Assembly: GCA_012271015.1 (NCBI GenBank)
Contig: JAAXHD010000056.1
Coordinates: 10,115 to 74,114 of the forward strand
Reading direction: 5' to 3'
DNA length: 64,000 nucleotides
Source: Candidatus Poribacteria bacterium
Lineage (GTDB): Bacteria; Poribacteria; WGA-4E; WGA-3G
The notes under the pieces were generated by a model. That model was not told the DNA's origin and searched no databases. It saw only the letters and a program-made list of their open reading frames with translations. This document shows positions 5,484-44,577 of the stretch, one piece after another. Numbering within the stretch: the stretch's first letter is position 1; every line of letters starts with the position of its first letter. Made by a program: the position numbers and the translations under genes.

Positions 5484-6959
5484 CTACAGGTCAGCGAACT
5501 CTTTCGGAACAAACCGCTGTTGATACGCGTAATTTTCCTCCGGTGGGACGGTCGCCTCGGCAACAGGCAGCGTGACCAGTTTACCTTCTCGGATGGCGGC
5601 TTCAAATTCGGGACGGAATTTGCGCATATAACTCACGGCGGGCCAGGAAACTGCAATGCCAAAGACACAAATCGTATTCCACGTCATGGTATCCACATTC
5701 GCAATGTTATTGGCAACACTTTCCAGCAAATCTAAATCTTCGTAGATATCTTCTGTCTCACCCGTATCGCCCCATCTACCGTTTTCAGCAACACCAAATT
5801 TGGGACGGGTCATCGTGCTTTTCCGTCCGTTTCCGTCGGCGATACGTTGGACAATATCCCGGACCCACGGAGTTCCCCAGCGGCACGGCGTGCACTGTCC
5901 ACAAGACTCGTGCGCGTAGAATTTCATGATATTGAGTAAGCAATCGACGATATTCCGTGTCTCGTTCATGACAATGATGCCACCGGAACCAAGCATCGAT
6001 TTTGCGAGCGTGAGTGAGGTAAAATCAAGCCGCGTATCCAACTCATAATGCGTTAGAATCGGTGCGGAACTACCACCAGGGATAACCGCTTTCACCTCTT
6101 CACCGCGCAACCCTCCAGCGACTTCAATAAGCTCTGAACAAGTCAAACCCAGATCAAGCTCATAGACACCGGGTTCGTTAACATCACCACTAATGCAATA
6201 GAGTTTTGTGCCAGTGTTGGGATCGGGTGTCGGCGGATCAGATCGCGTATCGGCATACGTAGGTCCCATTTGGGTGTACCACTCCACCCCGTTGCCAACG
6301 ATAAAAGGCAGATTGCATAAGGTCTCCACATTCTGCACTACAGTCGGTTTTCCAAACACACCTTCGACAGCAGGGAATGGAGGTTTGTTCCGAGGTTGCC
6401 CGCGTTTGCCCTCCAGCGATTCAATGAGCCCTGTCTCTTCACCACAGATATAAGCACCGGCTCCTGGATGTGAATAGATGTCAATGTTGAGTCCTGTACC
6501 ACGGATGTCTTTGCCGAGATAGCCTTGTTCGTAAGCCTCTTTGATAGCGGCATCCAACATCTGTTTCCCAAGTGTGAATTCCCCGCGGATGTAGACATAA
6601 GTCGTCTCAATGCCCATCGCGTAACAGCAAATTAGGATACCTTCAATTAAGAGGTGTGGATTCTTTTCCAAAACGTAGCGATTACTGAACGTCCCCGGCT
6701 CACTTTCGTCGGCGTTGCAACAGAGATAACATGGCTTTATATCTCTTGGAACGAAACTCCATTTCAAGCCTGTCGAAAATCCGGCACCACCTCTACCCTT
6801 CAACCCGGAATCCATCACCATTTTCGCAATATCATCTGGTTGGTATTCCGTAATTGCCTTTTCAAAACGCGTGTAGCCATCGTATTGCCGAAAGACATCG
6901 AACGTGTTAATATCAGGCACATCCAGATGCTCGTAGAGAATTCGTCTTTCTTCTATCAT
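5484..6959 (-). CDS. nuoF: NADH-quinone oxidoreductase subunit F
   Basis: GLKGRGGAGFSTGLKWSF (FMN/NADH site). ESCGQCTPCRWG (4Fe-4S). At 491 aa it carries an extra segment near the C-terminus. Confidence 0.93.
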   Translation of the reverse strand: MIEERRILYEHLDVPDINTFDVFRQYDGYTRFEKAITEYQPDDIAKMVMDSGLKGRGGAGFSTGLKWSFVPRDIKPCYLCCNADESEPGTFSNRYVLEKNPHLLIEGILICCYAMGIETTYVYIRGEFTLGKQMLDAAIKEAYEQGYLGKDIRGTGLNIDIYSHPGAGAYICGEETGLIESLEGKRGQPRNKPPFPAVEGVFGKPTVVQNVETLCNLPFIVGNGVEWYTQMGPTYADTRSDPPTPDPNTGTKLYCISGDVNEPGVYELDLGLTCSELIEVAGGLRGEEVKAVIPGGSSAPILTHYELDTRLDFTSLTLAKSMLGSGGIIVMNETRNIVDCLLNIMKFYAHESCGQCTPCRWGTPWVRDIVQRIADGNGRKSTMTRPKFGVAENGRWGDTGETEDIYEDLDLLESVANNIANVDTMTWNTICVFGIAVSWPAVSYMRKFRPEFEAAIREGKLVTLPVAEATVPPEENYAYQQRFVPKEFADL

Positions 6960-6969
6960 ACTATCTCCT

Positions 6970-7488
6970 CTACAAATTATCTATGATTTCATCAACCTTT
7001 TCTGGGGTTAAATTTTTATGCAAATCATCGTTCACCATGATAACAGGAGCGACATCGCAAGAAGCAAGACATTCCACTTTCATGAGCGTGAACTTACCAT
7101 CAGCAGTTGTACCCTTCGCGAGATTTGTTTCAGAAGCGACATCCGTGTCCAACTTCGCCTTAAGATGATCCAAAACGATCTTACAGTCCCGTAAGGCACA
7201 AGGAAGGGTGTGGCATATCCGAATGACGTACTCTCCTACCGGCTCTTCAAAGAACATCGGATAGAAGGTAACGACATCTTTGACCTTCATCACAGAAACC
7301 TCGAGTTGCTCTGCGACATACTTCATGACAGCGGGCGTAATGTAACCTGCCTGCCTTTGGGCGAGATGAAGGGTTGGCAACATCGCGGCTTCTTTAACGG
7401 GATACCGCCCTATTAACGCGTTGAATTCCCTTTGGTTTTCTTCGTTAAACGCGAAAGGCGTTTCGATTTGAATGAGTTCATCTGACAT
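6970..7488 (-). CDS. nuoE: NADH-quinone oxidoreductase subunit E
   Basis: Thioredoxin-like 2Fe-2S subunit, with LPTLHLAQRQAGYIT, ICHTLPCALRDC and ECLASCDVAPVIMVND. Confidence 0.9.
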   Translation of the reverse strand: MSDELIQIETPFAFNEENQREFNALIGRYPVKEAAMLPTLHLAQRQAGYITPAVMKYVAEQLEVSVMKVKDVVTFYPMFFEEPVGEYVIRICHTLPCALRDCKIVLDHLKAKLDTDVASETNLAKGTTADGKFTLMKVECLASCDVAPVIMVNDDLHKNLTPEKVDEIIDNL

Positions 7489-39442: not shown

Positions 39443-39757
39443 ATGTATTCCCGTCTCCAAAGCTTAAAAGAAAAATATCTACGCGGTATTGTCAACGAGT
39501 CTGAGGTTCGGTTGGAGAAACGCATCACTTCTGAAAGTGAAGCACAAGGGAAACGTATTACGGATTTACGGGAGCGCATAAACTTCCAAGGCCATCTAAT
39601 CATTGCTTTAATCGTCGCCATTATCGGTTTTGTTGCTGTGCCGTTGAGTTTCCTTGTTTATCAATATAACAAACAACGCGACCGACAGCGAGAAGAAATC
39701 CAGGCACTCCGACGGAGAATAGAGGAACTCGAACGGAAGCCAATCATCCAGGCTTAA
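39443..39757 (+). CDS. Small coiled-coil protein with one TM helix, hypothetical
   Basis: MYSRLQSLKEKYLRG..., TM helix LIIALIVAIIGFVAVPLSFLVY, then REEIQALRRRIEELERK. The track start is TTG 39431. Confidence 0.5.
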   Translation: MYSRLQSLKEKYLRGIVNESEVRLEKRITSESEAQGKRITDLRERINFQGHLIIALIVAIIGFVAVPLSFLVYQYNKQRDRQREEIQALRRRIEELERKPIIQA

Positions 39758-39763
39758 CCGATA

Positions 39764-41101
39764 GTGCAATCGTTGGCGAGGGTTGAAGGGTTCCGCAACG
39801 CAAAAAACATGGACAATATTACTAAAATTGTAAACGATTTCGGTGAAAGCATTGTTCGGGTAGACGGAGATATTCCTGTTGACCTTCCAGCAAAAGAGGG
39901 CGACAGATTCCTATTCATAAGTTATGACCAGAGTTTCTTAACGCACGGCTTGCACAAGTATCCTGCCAAGTTTTTTCCAGAATTACCCCGTTGGCTCATC
40001 AAACGGTATTCTCAAGAAAACGAGCGGATTCTCGATCCTTTTGCGGGGAGCGGCACTACAAATGTTGAGGCTCTCCTCTCAAAGCGTTACTCTGTTGGAA
40101 TTGATGTCGATCCATTTTCCCGTTTTATTTCAAAGGTGAAGGTAACGCCTTTGGCGGAGAAAGAACTCAAGTTAGCTCAAAAAGTCCTTTTGGAAGCTAT
40201 TTCTCACTACCGCCCCTCACAAGTTGCCCAATGCGATTTACCAGACTTCCCTTATAGAGACAATTGGTTCAATAAAGAGATTCTCTTGGAGTTGAGCTAC
40301 TTAAGAAAGCAGATTCAGTCCCTTGATAGCAACGATAAAATCAAAGACTTTTTCAAAGTCTGTCTCTCCTCTATCATCCGCTCTGTTTCTAACGCTGATA
40401 ATAATTGCACCCGAACCGTAATCCGAAAGAAATTGAATAAAGTAGTTAATCCGAACGATGCTTTGAAGCGGTTCATGAAAGCATTGGAAGTCAAAGTTCC
40501 CAAAATGATAGAATTTTCCCGAAACTGTCCATCTGACATAACCGCTGAATTCCCAACGGACATGGATGCGAGAAACATTAAATACGGGGCAAATTACTTT
40601 GATTTAGCCTTAACTTCACCACCTTATGTCAATGCCGTTGATTATCCAAGAACTCACCAATTAGAAATGTATTGGCTTGGCTTTGCCCAGGAATCATTAC
40701 TTGCTTTGAAAAAACTGAATGTCGGAACAGAAAGCGTATCAGCCTTGCATTACAAGATTGAACACAAAATAGGCGTTCCAGAAGCAGACAGAGTGATAGT
40801 AAAGATTTTTAAGGAGGACCCAAGACGCGCATTCATAGCTTTCAAATATTTAGATGACATGCGGAAAAACCTGATTGAGGTTTATCAAGTCCTGCGTGAA
40901 GGTGGTAGGTACATTATCGTTGTAGGTAATAATCGTATCCGAGGACAGTTATTTGAGAACTGGAAGTATCTCATGCCAATCGCTGAAAATATTGGGTTTG
41001 AAGTTGAAACTTATTTCGGTTCGGAGATTATCAAACATTTTATTAAAGTCCCCAGAGGAGAACGTATCAACACTGATTGGGTTTTAGTCTTGAGAAAATG
41101 A
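39764..41101 (+). CDS. Site-specific DNA methyltransferase (N4-C/N6-A type, AdoMet motif before SPPY motif)
   Basis: HKYPAKFFPELPRWLIKRYSQENERILDPFAGSGTTNVEA (motif I, nt 40034-40060) and LALTSPPYVNAVDY (motif IV, nt 40613-40627). GTG start at 39764 or ATG at 39809. Confidence 0.75.
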   Translation: MQSLARVEGFRNAKNMDNITKIVNDFGESIVRVDGDIPVDLPAKEGDRFLFISYDQSFLTHGLHKYPAKFFPELPRWLIKRYSQENERILDPFAGSGTTNVEALLSKRYSVGIDVDPFSRFISKVKVTPLAEKELKLAQKVLLEAISHYRPSQVAQCDLPDFPYRDNWFNKEILLELSYLRKQIQSLDSNDKIKDFFKVCLSSIIRSVSNADNNCTRTVIRKKLNKVVNPNDALKRFMKALEVKVPKMIEFSRNCPSDITAEFPTDMDARNIKYGANYFDLALTSPPYVNAVDYPRTHQLEMYWLGFAQESLLALKKLNVGTESVSALHYKIEHKIGVPEADRVIVKIFKEDPRRAFIAFKYLDDMRKNLIEVYQVLREGGRYIIVVGNNRIRGQLFENWKYLMPIAENIGFEVETYFGSEIIKHFIKVPRGERINTDWVLVLRK

Positions 41102-41119
41102 GGGAACAGAGGCAGAAAC

Positions 41120-41855
41120 ATGCTTAAAATAGAAGAGAGAGGCAGGCTTCAGTAGATGGCTTTGCTCATGAGCATATCGCGGCTGGAATTTTGATGAAAA
41201 GATACCAGAATGTCTCGTTGGTCGATCTACCTTTATCGCCTTATGACATTATTATTGTCCGTAAGACAGCAGATGACAGTGAGGACATAATTCGAGCGCA
41301 AGTCAAAACAGCAAAACAATCGGTGCCCTTTACTGGTGGGGGTAGAGGTGGAGTTGATAGAGAGTACAAATCGGATGTAAAGACTTATACGCAGTCCACT
41401 GCAACCTCAGATGTTGTTATCGGAGTTCATCCAGCAGGCGATAACGCTTTTGAACTCTACTTTGTTCCGACCATTCTCATTGAAGAACTCAATCAACAGA
41501 GTATTTCTATTAACGCCTTGTGCTAATTGACCATGTGTTTTGTTAAATTTCACAGTTGTTGGGTTTTCGTTGTAAATTGGACCTTGATTTCATTTCCTTT
41601 TTGTTCTCATGTAGAGACTTTGGTTTAAAAATGGGGGCAATATGAACCGAAACTGTCAAACTACAAGTGGCAAAGGGTTAACACTGTGAAATCTAAATCT
41701 ACAAAGAGTTAATTAGCACAAGCCGTTCTATTAACAAAATTAGAGATTTGCAGGAAAACTACTTCATTCTGGAAAATTGTAAAAATAAGGAAGTAATAAT
41801 CGACAAATGTAGAGAATATGGGATTCTACCATCAGAAACTCGTTACCTCTTCTAA
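41120..41855 (+). pseudogene. PD-(D/E)xK (Mrr-like D...QxK) nuclease gene, disrupted by a MITE and probably by a 5' frameshift
   Basis: GFAHEHIAAGIL..., YDIIIVRK and IRAQVKT form the nuclease core. The ORF stops at TAA 41524 inside the element. The same frame reopens after the element for 41 codons, to TAA 41853-41855. Confidence 0.6.
41514..41725. mobile_element. 212-bp MITE-like element with 15-bp terminal inverted repeats and a 9-bp target duplication
   Basis: CGCCTTGTGCTAATT (41514-41528) versus AATTAGCACAAGCCG (41711-41725), matching 14/15. Flanking TTCTATTAA at 41505-41513 and 41726-41734. Subterminal ATTTCACAGT is inverted, 33 nt from each end. Confidence 0.7.
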
Positions 41856-41971
41856 AAATATCCCCAGCCACAACGAGGATCTTCCTGACGGTATTGCCGA
41901 AGCATTTATTGAATGGGCAAAGCGTGAAGATTTGAGTTTTTGGAGGTAATATGAGCGCAATCAGCAGTATG

Positions 41972-42340
41972 TTAGCATGCCCTCATGAAAGCGAGAATGA
42001 TGCCCAGAACAGCGAGGCCAGCTGTCATCGTCCATTGGAGCGTCTTGATTCCCGTCTCAATTCGGTCAAGACGTTGCCCTTGGGACCTAACATCGTCGCG
42101 AAGCGCGTTAACATCCGACTTAACGTCCGTAACATCCGACTTGTCGGCTTTCTGGTCTAACTTTTCGGCAACAGACTTGAGCTCTGCCCTAACGTCTTTG
42201 ACATCCGACTTAACGTCCGTAACATCCGACTTGTCGGCCTTTTCGTTTATGACATGATCCACGCGGCCTTCAAGCCGCTCCAATCGGAGTCCTACATCTT
42301 TGAGTGTCTGTAGTAACAATTCGTTGAAGTGATTTGACAT
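41972..42340 (-). CDS. Coiled-coil, C-terminally TM-anchored protein with an internal KADKSDVTDVKSDV repeat
   Basis: SD AGGAGG 8 nt upstream of the ATG. Heptad-like repeats, and a C-terminal TM helix WTMTAGLAVLGIILAFM. Confidence 0.6.
   Translation of the reverse strand: MSNHFNELLLQTLKDVGLRLERLEGRVDHVINEKADKSDVTDVKSDVKDVRAELKSVAEKLDQKADKSDVTDVKSDVNALRDDVRSQGQRLDRIETGIKTLQWTMTAGLAVLGIILAFMRAC
42111..42238. repeat. Two perfect 38-bp direct repeats with 90-bp period (in-frame, coding)
   Basis: ACATCCGACTTAACGTCCGTAACATCCGACTTGTCGGC occurs at 42111-42148 and 42201-42238. Confidence 0.9.
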
Positions 42341-42361
42341 CGGAAACGCCTCCTATAGTGT

Positions 42362-42391
42362 AGGATAACAGAAATGTGTGATGGATGTCAA
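42362..42391 (-). promoter_or_regulatory. Sigma70-like promoter, TTGACA-18-TATCCT, for the coiled-coil gene
   Basis: Minus-sense TTGACA (42391-42386) and TATCCT (42367-42362), about 20 nt upstream of the AGGAGG SD. Confidence 0.5.
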
Positions 42392-42522
42392 GTAATTAAA
42401 GGGGCTATTCAGTTTTTCAATCTGGCAACCGATTTTGAACACCAAACATTGCTGCCTATATTTACCCAAGTTGCTACGGACAAGTTTTTAGGCAGACAGA
42501 TGCCGTTTTTCAGCGAAAATCC

Positions 42523-42651
42523 TTAACGCTCTCTGTAGCTCTTATTGTACTCGTGTAAAGCATTTTCGATATCTGCCTTTAACTCGTAGTGTTTTTTCTC
42601 AGTTGATTCACAAACTTTTTTGTAAATTTCTGTTATGACTCCTGAAAACAT
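42523..42651 (-). CDS. Possible 42-aa small protein
   Basis: MFSGVITEIYKKVCESTEKKHYELKADIENALHEYNKSYRER, with AAGGGGA 8 nt upstream of the ATG. It is below the ORF-track length cutoff and has no other support. Confidence 0.25.
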   Translation of the reverse strand: MFSGVITEIYKKVCESTEKKHYELKADIENALHEYNKSYRER

Positions 42652-42849
42652 TGCCTATCCCCTTGTTCTAATCAGTATCAAGGTGAGTTGAAGGAAAATC
42701 TGTGAAAAATGATATGCGTGCCGGTGGGTGTTCTATTAACAGAACTACTCGTAAGACCAAACTTTTTTGCCTAACATATTCGCTCCCTTTTGCCTTTGTG
42801 AGGGAGAATTTCAAAATCCTTGATTCTATGATTTAGTCAATCGCAATGC

Positions 42850-43167
42850 TCAAGTATAATTCGGATAACCTGTATTTTTCAGACAACGCTTAAGTGCGTT
42901 CAATAGGGTTTGGAACCTATCCAACCGTGGTGCCTCTTCGTTAGAGAGCATATTTAAAAGTGTTTCAGTATCAATACCCGTTCGTTTGGAAAGTTCGGAA
43001 ACTCCACCTTGCGATTCCACAAAAGTCCGGAAGCCCTTTAGAAAGAAGGGCAGATCGCCATCAGCGAGGTATTTCTCCAATGTCAACTGAAGATAATCAA
43101 TCGCTGCCTCGCGGTCGGTGACAAGGTATCCAATAAAGTACTCGTTCCAGTTCCCCATCTCTCTCAT
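42850..43167 (-). CDS. higA: Addiction-module antidote protein (HI1420/HigA-type HTH)
   Basis: DYLQLTLEKYLADGD...GGVSELSKRTGIDTETLLNMLSNEEAPRLDRFQTLLNAL. The ATG overlaps the reconstructed toxin stop as ATGA. Confidence 0.75.
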   Translation of the reverse strand: MREMGNWNEYFIGYLVTDREAAIDYLQLTLEKYLADGDLPFFLKGFRTFVESQGGVSELSKRTGIDTETLLNMLSNEEAPRLDRFQTLLNALKRCLKNTGYPNYT

Positions 43168-43492
43168 CGGCGTGTCCCCTTATATTCTATCAAATATGAT
43201 TTAGCAAATTCAATATCCACTTGTTGTGATTTCTTATCTCCACCACAAAGCAAAAGGACGAGTATATTTCAATTTGACCAAAATAGATGCGATATCCTGG
43301 TCCAAAATGGAGACGCAATTCAAAGACACCTCCACCGACAGATTGGCAATCACCAAAATTGCCATTTTCAAGCCTTGCAAGCCGTTTGTCAATTCTCTGT
43401 TTCGTTATTTTATCTCGGATGGATTCAAACCAGTCAATGAAAGGTTGTCTGCCGTTTGAACAAGAAATTTCGCTGAGAAGACTTAAAACCAT
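43164..43492 (-). pseudogene. higB: Addiction-module killer protein (HI1419/HigB-type, RelE/ParE fold), frameshifted
   Basis: [61 protein letters not shown] reads in one frame. [34 protein letters not shown]-stop reads in the -1 frame. The switch is at the A3 run (plus-strand TTT, 43267-43269). Confidence 0.7.
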
Positions 43493-43584
43493 TGATCGGA
43501 ATCCTTTCTTTGTCGTCTGTTTTCGTATCACTTCTCCAACCCTAAACATCCGTGAAAAATCTGTAAGTTCCTCTCTTGTAAGGG

Positions 43585-44577
43585 CTATTTTGCTTTCAGC
43601 TGTCCCCATTGTGTTGCGATTTTCTCACTCGCCGAAACAGATAGGCTGTTGTGCGGGGTCCAGTCCATCCCCCAATTATCGCTCGGATGAGGTGTGAGAT
43701 TCGTGATCTGCCCATCGCTCAACCGATATTTATAGATTTTGTAAATGTTCCCTAAACCCTTAGGCACTCCCGCAAAGAGCACGGCACCCCCATCATCAGT
43801 CCAGCACACTTTATTGATCTTCCAACCTTTCGGTGTATCCAGCACTTTCAGATGCCGAGTCCTCACATTTACTATAAGAATGGAGTCGGCAGCCCATTTA
43901 TTACCGAGAAACTCTTGTTCACTGTAGAGAATGTATTCACCGTCTGGGGACCATTTTGCAAAACTACTCACCATGATGGAAGTTCCGAAGCGTCCTTTGC
44001 GGAGCCGCCGGAGGAGTGGACGAATATTTCTGCCATTCGCATTCATGGTGTAGACATGTCGTCCCTCCGGTCCTTCGTGTTCAAAAGCAATATACTTCCC
44101 ATCCGGCGACCAGTCAGGATCTGCCGCGAACCCCAAATGCGTTAATTGGCGTACTTCACGGGTCGCTATCTCCATCCGATAGAGTTCCCAACCCCCATTC
44201 CGACTACTTGTAAAGGCAAGCAATTTCCCATCAGGAGACCAGGATGCCCCTCCATCAAGCGCGGGATGTTGTGTGAGATTCTGTTCATCCGTGCCATCCG
44301 CATTTATCAGAAAGATGTCAATCTGTTGCTGTCGGCGATGGTCTTCCGAATTTAGGTCCGGTGCATAGAGAAGCTGCTGCCCATCAGGAGACCACGCCAG
44401 ATCACCCTTTCTAAAGGATGTATCTGTGATTTGGCGAACACTGCTGCCATCATCGTTCATCACATACACATTACTCTTTCCATCCCGGTCAGAGAGGAAG
44501 GCGATATCTGCGACAGACGGCATGCAGACTATCAGAAAGAAACCTGTAACTATCCAAAGTTTCCACATTTTTAACAC
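43585..44577 (-). CDS. Secreted TolB-like PD40 beta-propeller protein with a [11 protein letters not shown]-terminal tail
   Basis: Signal peptide, then repeated SPDG(Q/K) PD40 motifs ([40 protein letters not shown]). Confidence 0.75.

Follow-up and report, generated by a model that had tools for sequence, protein, structure and literature searches.

A MITE-like insertion and a 4-bp deletion disrupt the predicted nuclease of a probable restriction-modification pair in Candidatus Poribacteria

Introduction

Insertion-sequence-derived MITEs are found in bacteria, the Correia elements of Neisseria, which duplicate TA at their target, being one example. Terminal inverted repeats (TIRs) with a flanking target duplication are the hallmark of DDE-type cut-and-paste transposition and set an element apart from introns and REP elements, and duplications of 9 bp are known for the IS4 family (IS10/IS50), the IS903 subgroup of IS5, IS1, ISLre2 and some members of IS256. 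Solitary ('orphan') methyltransferases, for their part, arise from decayed restriction-modification (R-M) systems. Among the nucleases considered below, the homing endonuclease I-Ssp6803I has been described as closest to R.PvuII and Hjc (PMC3384342).

Here we describe a locus in a 64-kb window (the whole stretch of Candidatus Poribacteria DNA that was analysed, 64,000 nucleotides) in which a predicted nuclease gene downstream of a DNA methyltransferase gene is interrupted by a 212-bp element. Bacterial MITEs such as Correia are likewise 100-300 bp long, non-coding, bounded by TIRs and a target duplication, able to form hairpins, directed to AT-rich targets and disruptive of genes; the element in the window differs from Correia elements in duplicating 9 bp instead of TA, and its TIR CGSCTTGTGCTAATT with the conserved TTTCACAG at position +35 was unmatched in the collections searched. 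Two members of this kind are known and their cores are unrelated. By general description, the element resembles the 9-bp-duplicating insertion-sequence families in duplication length and short TIRs, with no transposase found, and its ends are unlike those of the IS5-family (1005 bp, 3-bp duplication), IS630-family and IS3-family elements carried by a related contig, L014. As in the origin of orphan methyltransferases, the nuclease has been destroyed and the methyltransferase kept, an outcome repeated independently in L014 and in L016/L017; the window represents an intermediate stage at which both lesions remain legible and no sign of drift is yet seen. With I-Ssp6803I, the PF11645 family and small Type IIP enzymes such as R.PvuII, the nuclease shares a predicted PD-(D/E)XK core fold and a size of ~150-170 aa, whereas it differs from I-Ssp6803I in that its gene is linked to a methyltransferase rather than to a group I intron and in an extra predicted FTGGxRGGxDR loop.

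Results

A 212-bp element with inverted termini and a 9-bp duplication

The non-autonomous element occupies positions 41514-41725 (+ strand), has a GC content of 37% compared with 46.6% in the window, and is missing from the orthologous loci L001 and L002. Direct copies of TTCTATTAA flank it at 41505-41513 and 41726-41734; the left junction (41505-41528) is TTCTATTAA followed directly by CGCCTTGTGCTAATT, and the right junction (41711-41734) is AATTAGCACAAGCCG followed directly by TTCTATTAA. The left TIR, CGCCTTGTGCTAATT (41514-41528, +), resembles the end at position 2101 of a further related contig, L015, which reads CGGCTTGTGCTAATT; the right TIR (41711-41725, −) reads AATTAGCACAAGCCG on the + strand and has CGGCTTGTGCTAATT as its reverse complement. 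A sequence-only reading of this DNA had proposed 15-bp TIRs matching at 14 of 15 positions, a 9-bp direct duplication on both sides of a 212-bp body and a second inverted block 33 nt inside each end, and every one of these features was confirmed base by base. The second block is ATTTCACAGT at 41547-41556 (+), with its counterpart at 41683-41692 (−) reading ACTGTGAAAT on the + strand, so that both copies fall at positions 34-43 from their respective ends. Taken out to 45 nt, the ends still match as a weaker inverted repeat (78%). When up to two mismatches were allowed, the TIR occurred at just these two sites in the 64-kb window (0.08 expected), and none of 100 shuffled sequences contained two. 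The direct repeat looks 10 bp long, since the right copy, too, is followed by a C; 9 bp was taken as the duplication length because it keeps both ends symmetrical and in register.

The longest open stretch in the element is 44 codons, a six-frame protein search of the element returned no match, and a search of positions 40500-42800 against Rfam likewise gave none. It folds into a long hairpin (z = -5.2). The element is therefore small, without coding capacity for a transposase, and bounded by TIRs and a duplication for which empty sites exist elsewhere, all of which are features of MITEs. The sequence-only reading was also borne out in finding no transposase in the window: there is none among the large open reading frames with Pfam results (20 scanned directly, together with the annotation of neighbours), and those checked were housekeeping genes (nuo, trk, glycine cleavage system, pnp, infB, nusA, CCA-adding enzyme and a sigma factor).

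Empty-site alleles in relatives, which the same reading had named as a check, are present in two contigs. In L001, a syntenic Tara scaffold whose flanks share ~90% DNA identity with those of the window, and in L002, a second syntenic contig with an intact homologue, the nuclease gene is uninterrupted and carries a single TTCTATTAA (L001) or TTCTATCAA (L002) exactly at the insertion point; when the window segments on either side of the element are aligned to either contig by BLAST, their positions there share exactly nine bases. We consider it likely that a MITE-type cut-and-paste transposon inserted into codon 133 of a 172-aa PD-(D/E)XK nuclease, the restriction partner of the upstream Type II methyltransferase. 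In such an event, a transposase supplied in trans from an element outside the window would bind the 15-nt TIRs and, 34 nt in from each end, the TTTCACAG motif, and would cut the two strands of the AT-rich target TTCTATTAA 9 bp apart, after which gap repair would yield the 9-bp duplication.

A related element and the search for further copies

One related element was found, at 2101-2321 of L015, a contig from a related genome, where it is 221 bp long and intergenic rather than in the nuclease gene. It starts with CGGCTTGTGCTAATT, ends with the complement of CGACTTGTGCTAAAT and carries TTTCACAG at the same offset from both ends, so that this core motif lies at positions 35-42 in all four known ends of the two elements. 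Its flanks, GTAATTATA and TTAATTATA, that is (G/T)TAATTATA, form an AT-rich duplication matching at 8 of 9 positions. At their left ends the two elements share ~75% identity across 55 nt, and beyond ~55 nt at each end the cores are unrelated, which is not as expected from simple internal deletions of a single parent. The core of the L015 element (2160-2245) contains two copies of ATAAACATATCGTCCCTACGGGACT ~60 nt apart, each with a GTCCC-TAC-GGGAC hairpin, and in this is unlike the core in the window. The existence of an element family is thinly supported, the L015 copy being the sole sequence evidence for it.

Further copies, which the sequence-only reading had put forward for a search, thus amount to this one relative; a second copy was found neither in the 64-kb window nor, L015 aside, in ~100 kb of related Poribacteria loci. 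A profile built from the four known 55-nt ends (consensus CGNCTTGTGCTAAWT…TTTCACAG) and applied with nhmmer turned up no further ends, either in the window or among the fetched loci, a blastn search of plasmids with the element gave no match, and a protein search with all six-frame open stretches concatenated revealed no spurious open reading frames called in other copies. L021, the downstream extension of the source scaffold, contains no copy, and the upstream extension consists of short contigs only. Scans of larger collections produced chance matches: genome contigs searched with CTTGTGCTAATTN{14,22}TTTCACAGT gave two hits, both within one Clostridia coding sequence and otherwise dissimilar to the element; metagenome contigs, searched for the two TIR cores at a spacing of 167-197 nt, yielded a single perfect palindrome at an unrelated contig end; and viral contigs gave just phage coding sequences lacking a paired end. 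These collection negatives carry little weight because the patterns (…CACAGT, exact CTAATT) were too strict and would miss the L015 copy, and the source genome apparently lies outside the representative genomes scanned, because its own copy of the element was not returned. A literature search found no report of MITEs in Poribacteria.

No autonomous element with matching ends was found either, and it is in this respect that one may ask whether the 212 bp are instead what is left of a full-length insertion sequence whose interior was deleted in place, the small form never having been mobile. The lack of an autonomous partner or second copy across the window, the collection scans and the fetched loci agrees with this, as does L014, where a complete 1005-bp IS5-family element (6397-7401) lies within this very 9-bp target of the orthologous nuclease gene, showing that full-length elements do land here. 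That element, however, encodes DUF4096 and DDE_Tnp_1_2 open reading frames between the ends GAACTCATAGCGAGTA and GAAGTCATATTGAGTA and made a 3-bp duplication (ATT), so that with different ends and a different duplication it is not the parent; the other insertion sequences of L014 also end differently. Furthermore, the 221-bp element of L015, with the same 55-nt ends and a duplication of its own at another locus, is more easily explained by small elements that were mobilised. An in-place remnant is accordingly unlikely in our judgement, and insertion of an already small MITE-type element is preferred. Elements of the IS630 and IS3 families lie just downstream of the IS5-family element in L014. 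The tail ELIASTR of a truncated homologue, P0125, was considered as the translated end of a MITE; it really derives from the IS5-family element.

Two lesions in the nuclease gene

The nuclease gene is now broken into segments in different frames. A 5' stub (41121-41156, +) begins at the native ATG and encodes MLKIEERGR before running out of frame into LQ and a stop; the body (41143-41513, +), shifted in frame relative to that ATG, comprises codon 10 to the second base of codon 133 and includes E19, D44 and Q62-x-K64; and the detached 3' end (41735-41855, +) completes codon 133 with its third base and continues through 39 codons (KIRDLQENYF...ETRYLF) to the stop, its DNA being 95.5% identical to L001 10390-10523. 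From the body, the reading frame enters the element, where three foreign codons lead to a stop (…SISIN-ALC-stop); the 39 residues thereby lost from the C-terminus are predicted to form two helices.

The sequence-only reading had held that the insertion cut the nuclease off at ...INALC, and indeed no intact homologue ends in this way. Its in-silico deletion of 41514-41734 does join SISIN in frame to KIRDLQENYF...RYLF and a stop, with 39 residues added after N133 instead of the 41 codons it had counted, and its claim that these downstream codons are the C-terminus of the nuclease stands, since they align with the C-termini of intact 172-aa homologues and the 39 detached codons agree with them residue for residue. 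The protein repaired in silico proved to be 172 aa long, not 190-200 aa, and shares 95-96% identity with the intact homologues across 99% of its length, in a search that found >1,000 homologues in all. Proteins that are at least 90% identical are labelled Candidatus Poribacteria in their source names.

That reading had attributed the inactivation to the transposon, which does interrupt the gene but is not the sole lesion. A 4-bp deletion near 41143 (about 41141-41147) frameshifts the nuclease at codon 9-10, within the tract GAGAGAGG(C/T)AGACAGG, a short purine repeat; in the DNA alignment, the window has GAGAGAGG and, after a four-base gap, CAGGC, against GAGAGAGG(T/C)AGACAGGC in L001, L002 and L014, and intact homologues begin MLKIEERGRQASVDGF. 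With the insertion and this independent deletion, the nuclease is a pseudogene with two lesions. The sole open reading frame reported by the gene caller starts at the internal Met27 and is without both the first helix, which holds the conserved glutamate, and the C-terminal 39 residues.

The dN/dS ratio between the repaired nuclease and intact orthologues is 0.05-0.07, compared with 0.08 between two intact alleles; this shows no relaxation and indicates that inactivation was recent. Relative to L001, synonymous divergence (dS) is 0.22 in the nuclease gene (41143-41855) and 1.03 in the methyltransferase gene (39809-41101), both with dN/dS <0.1, a contrast in the aligned sequences that suggests either differing gene histories (recombination, recent spread of the nuclease) or constraint at the nucleotide level.

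The nuclease and its pairing with a methyltransferase

The window-type nuclease has no significant sequence match in Pfam, NCBIfam, PADLOC or PDB, and neither it nor P0004 matches PF11645 above the Pfam threshold. PF11645 (PDDEXK_5) is, however, matched by 12 of 24 diverse, more distant relatives (best E 1e-8), so that by sequence comparison the window nuclease appears to be a relative of PF11645 without being a recognised member by its own sequence. Its family is small, comprising 108 clusters at 50% identity in an exhaustive search of 1.84 billion cluster representatives, and in a diverse alignment of it (A5) the residues E19, D44 and Q62-x-K64 and the FTGGxRGGxDR loop are conserved. An AlphaFold2 model built on the diverse alignment (pLDDT 89.4, pTM 0.84), in which the FTGGxRGGxDR loop is predicted with low confidence, superseded a first model from 46 close homologues (pLDDT 54) whose fold search was meaningless; PDB profile-search matches were chromodomains and insignificant. 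With the later model, the best Foldseek match in the PDB was I-Ssp6803I (2ost; E 3.8e-4, probability 1.0, TM 0.59/0.68), followed by weaker matches (E >0.01) that include HinP1I, PvuII, MspI, EcoRV, SwaI, the SPARDA nuclease domain and the resolvase Hjc. The nuclease is thus predicted by its model to have a PD-(D/E)XK fold.

The DNA methyltransferase gene (39809-41101, +) has its true start at the ATG at 39809, the mechanically called open reading frame starting at a GTG at 39764. Its product matches PF01555 (N6_N4_Mtase) and, end to end, the PADLOC Type II methyltransferase model PDLC03362 (MTase_II; E 2e-78), is 97% identical to the 430-aa protein P0131 ('DNA methyltransferase, Candidatus Poribacteria') and is collinear with six homologues. 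It is full length and keeps all its motifs, DPFAGSGTT and SPPY among them, in agreement with the sequence-only reading that the methyltransferase had been left intact. The AdoMet motif DPFAGSGTT precedes the catalytic SPPY by ~190 residues, the reverse of the usual order in PF01555. SPPY presumably points to N4-cytosine methylation as the predicted specificity.

The methyltransferase gene adjoins the nuclease gene in L001, L002, L014 and L016. The pair recurs in L030 and L031 at 48% nuclease identity, in an unrelated neighbourhood and with a 4-bp gene overlap, and in L028 at 35% nuclease identity with the gene order reversed, the methyltransferase there being a sub-threshold Pfam hit (E 2e-4) in a gene cut by the contig end. 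As judged from these loci, a nuclease that is 48% identical is still paired with this type of methyltransferase, and one that is 35% identical probably is too. Methyltransferase motifs, an adjacent nuclease fold and linkage across divergent homologues and contexts together provide good evidence that the two genes form a Type II R-M pair of predicted activity, and the assignment of the nuclease to such a pair, made earlier from position, is now backed by fold and gene linkage.

The same structural evidence could be read differently, with the protein as a PD-(D/E)XK nuclease of homing or other type whose gene happens to lie beside that of a methyltransferase, in which case no R-M system was inactivated. 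I-Ssp6803I is after all its best structural match, half of the family members match PF11645, and no PADLOC restriction-enzyme model matches the protein; but linkage to the same methyltransferase type is seen where nuclease identity is down to 48%, and probably also where it is 35% (weak Pfam hit), with overlapping genes in one case and reversed order in the other, which runs against a chance neighbourhood, no intron or intein context is present, and I-Ssp6803I itself closely resembles R.PvuII (PMC3384342). We hold this reading to be as improbable as the in-place remnant and retain the view that the transposon entered the restriction partner of the methyltransferase. Because the methyltransferase is full length and the nuclease dead, the locus would now behave as a solitary methyltransferase.

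The insertion as a natural allele

The long stable hairpin formed by the insert might suggest another kind of insert, such as an intron, a gene for a small RNA or a palindromic repeat brought in by recombination; with no Rfam match, with TIRs and a target duplication that point to DDE-type transposition, and with a second element that has the same ends and its own duplication, any of these is very improbable. The insertion is also present in other assemblies. Positions 41000-41900 are 100% identical in L006-L009, four retrieved contigs that each come from a different assembly, two of which show a single SNP relative to the window over their full 3.5-4.1 kb, and the truncated 110-aa product, P0121, is recorded on nine contigs. 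This identity in four separate assemblies shows that the insertion is an allele truly carried in a natural population. A chimeric assembly or a sequencing error, which the metagenomic source and the single-copy element might suggest, is practically negligible as an explanation given that the four assemblies come from different samples, that two of them differ elsewhere by one SNP and that an exact 9-bp duplication with exact restoration of the frame is unlike a chimera.

Repeated loss of the nuclease in relatives

Besides the IS5-family insertion in L014, deletions of 2 bp were observed in L015 (~880-900), L016 (~2420-2440) and L017, all in the same GAAGAGAGAGG purine tract and each frameshifting the 5' end of the nuclease, although that in L015 may be a sequencing error because L015 is a 2x long-read contig. 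From its sequence, the purine tract looks like a slippage hot spot. In L032 (1143-1190), codon 11 of the methyltransferase is joined to about codon 22 of the nuclease by a 1.3-kb deletion that abolishes both functions at once; L014 and L016 keep a full-length methyltransferase. Sequence comparison thus indicates that relatives lost the same nuclease independently, by IS5-family insertion, by 2-bp deletions and by the 1.3-kb deletion.

Genes surrounding the locus

Several features of the neighbourhood were recorded separately. Downstream lie, on the − strand, a RelE/ParE-type toxin gene (TIGR02683; 43190-43609) and the adjacent HI1420-family antitoxin gene (42850-43167). The toxin matches positions 5-64 of the 95-position profile alone and is frameshifted, because the rest of the protein continues in another frame; the antitoxin looks intact, a pattern that mirrors the R-M pair, with the toxic partner dead and the antidote kept. 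Between these genes and the nuclease, positions 41972-42340 (−) encode a 122-aa coiled-coil protein with a C-terminal hydrophobic segment, in which a direct DNA repeat of ~50 nt (about 42100-42160 and 42198-42250) encodes ADKSDVTDVKSDV twice; this protein forms its own cluster and is found on contigs of this strain only. The coiled-coil gene and the toxin-antitoxin block (41860-43600) are missing from the syntenic L001. On the other side, an Rce1-like gene stands between a glycosyltransferase gene and the methyltransferase gene in L001, L002, L014, L016 and L032 and is missing from the window (39488-39801).

Discussion

The disruption of the toxic partner of an R-M system by a small transposon, leaving a solitary methyltransferase, is a well-known phenomenon, and the locus leaves current understanding unchanged as an ordinary example of R-M decay. 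The element and the nuclease family are probably undescribed, yet of known kinds. A more far-reaching reading would have the 172-aa protein found an uncatalogued Type II family with the I-Ssp6803I fold, represented mostly by near-identical copies, whose nuclease is frequently lost through two weak points, the purine-repeat tract of codons 5-10 and the AT-rich 9-mer of codons 130-133, and would place the element in a new MITE family. We regard this reading as doubtful; were it true, hosts would repeatedly turn the system into a solitary methyltransferase, and the MITE family would be one of conserved 55-nt ends with interchangeable cores.

For annotation, the 110-aa open reading frame becomes a pseudogene and the methyltransferase a solitary enzyme, and the intact alleles are a starting point for cloning the intact enzyme. 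For an uncultured phylum, the locus contributes a small mobile element whose ends were unseen elsewhere in the collections searched, together with a highly conserved, uncharacterised nuclease family that combines a predicted homing-endonuclease-like fold with the genomic behaviour of a restriction enzyme. With both lesions, the empty site and an intact allele available, it offers a legible snapshot of an R-M system turning into a solitary methyltransferase, to which the relatives add three more independent ways of losing the same nuclease.
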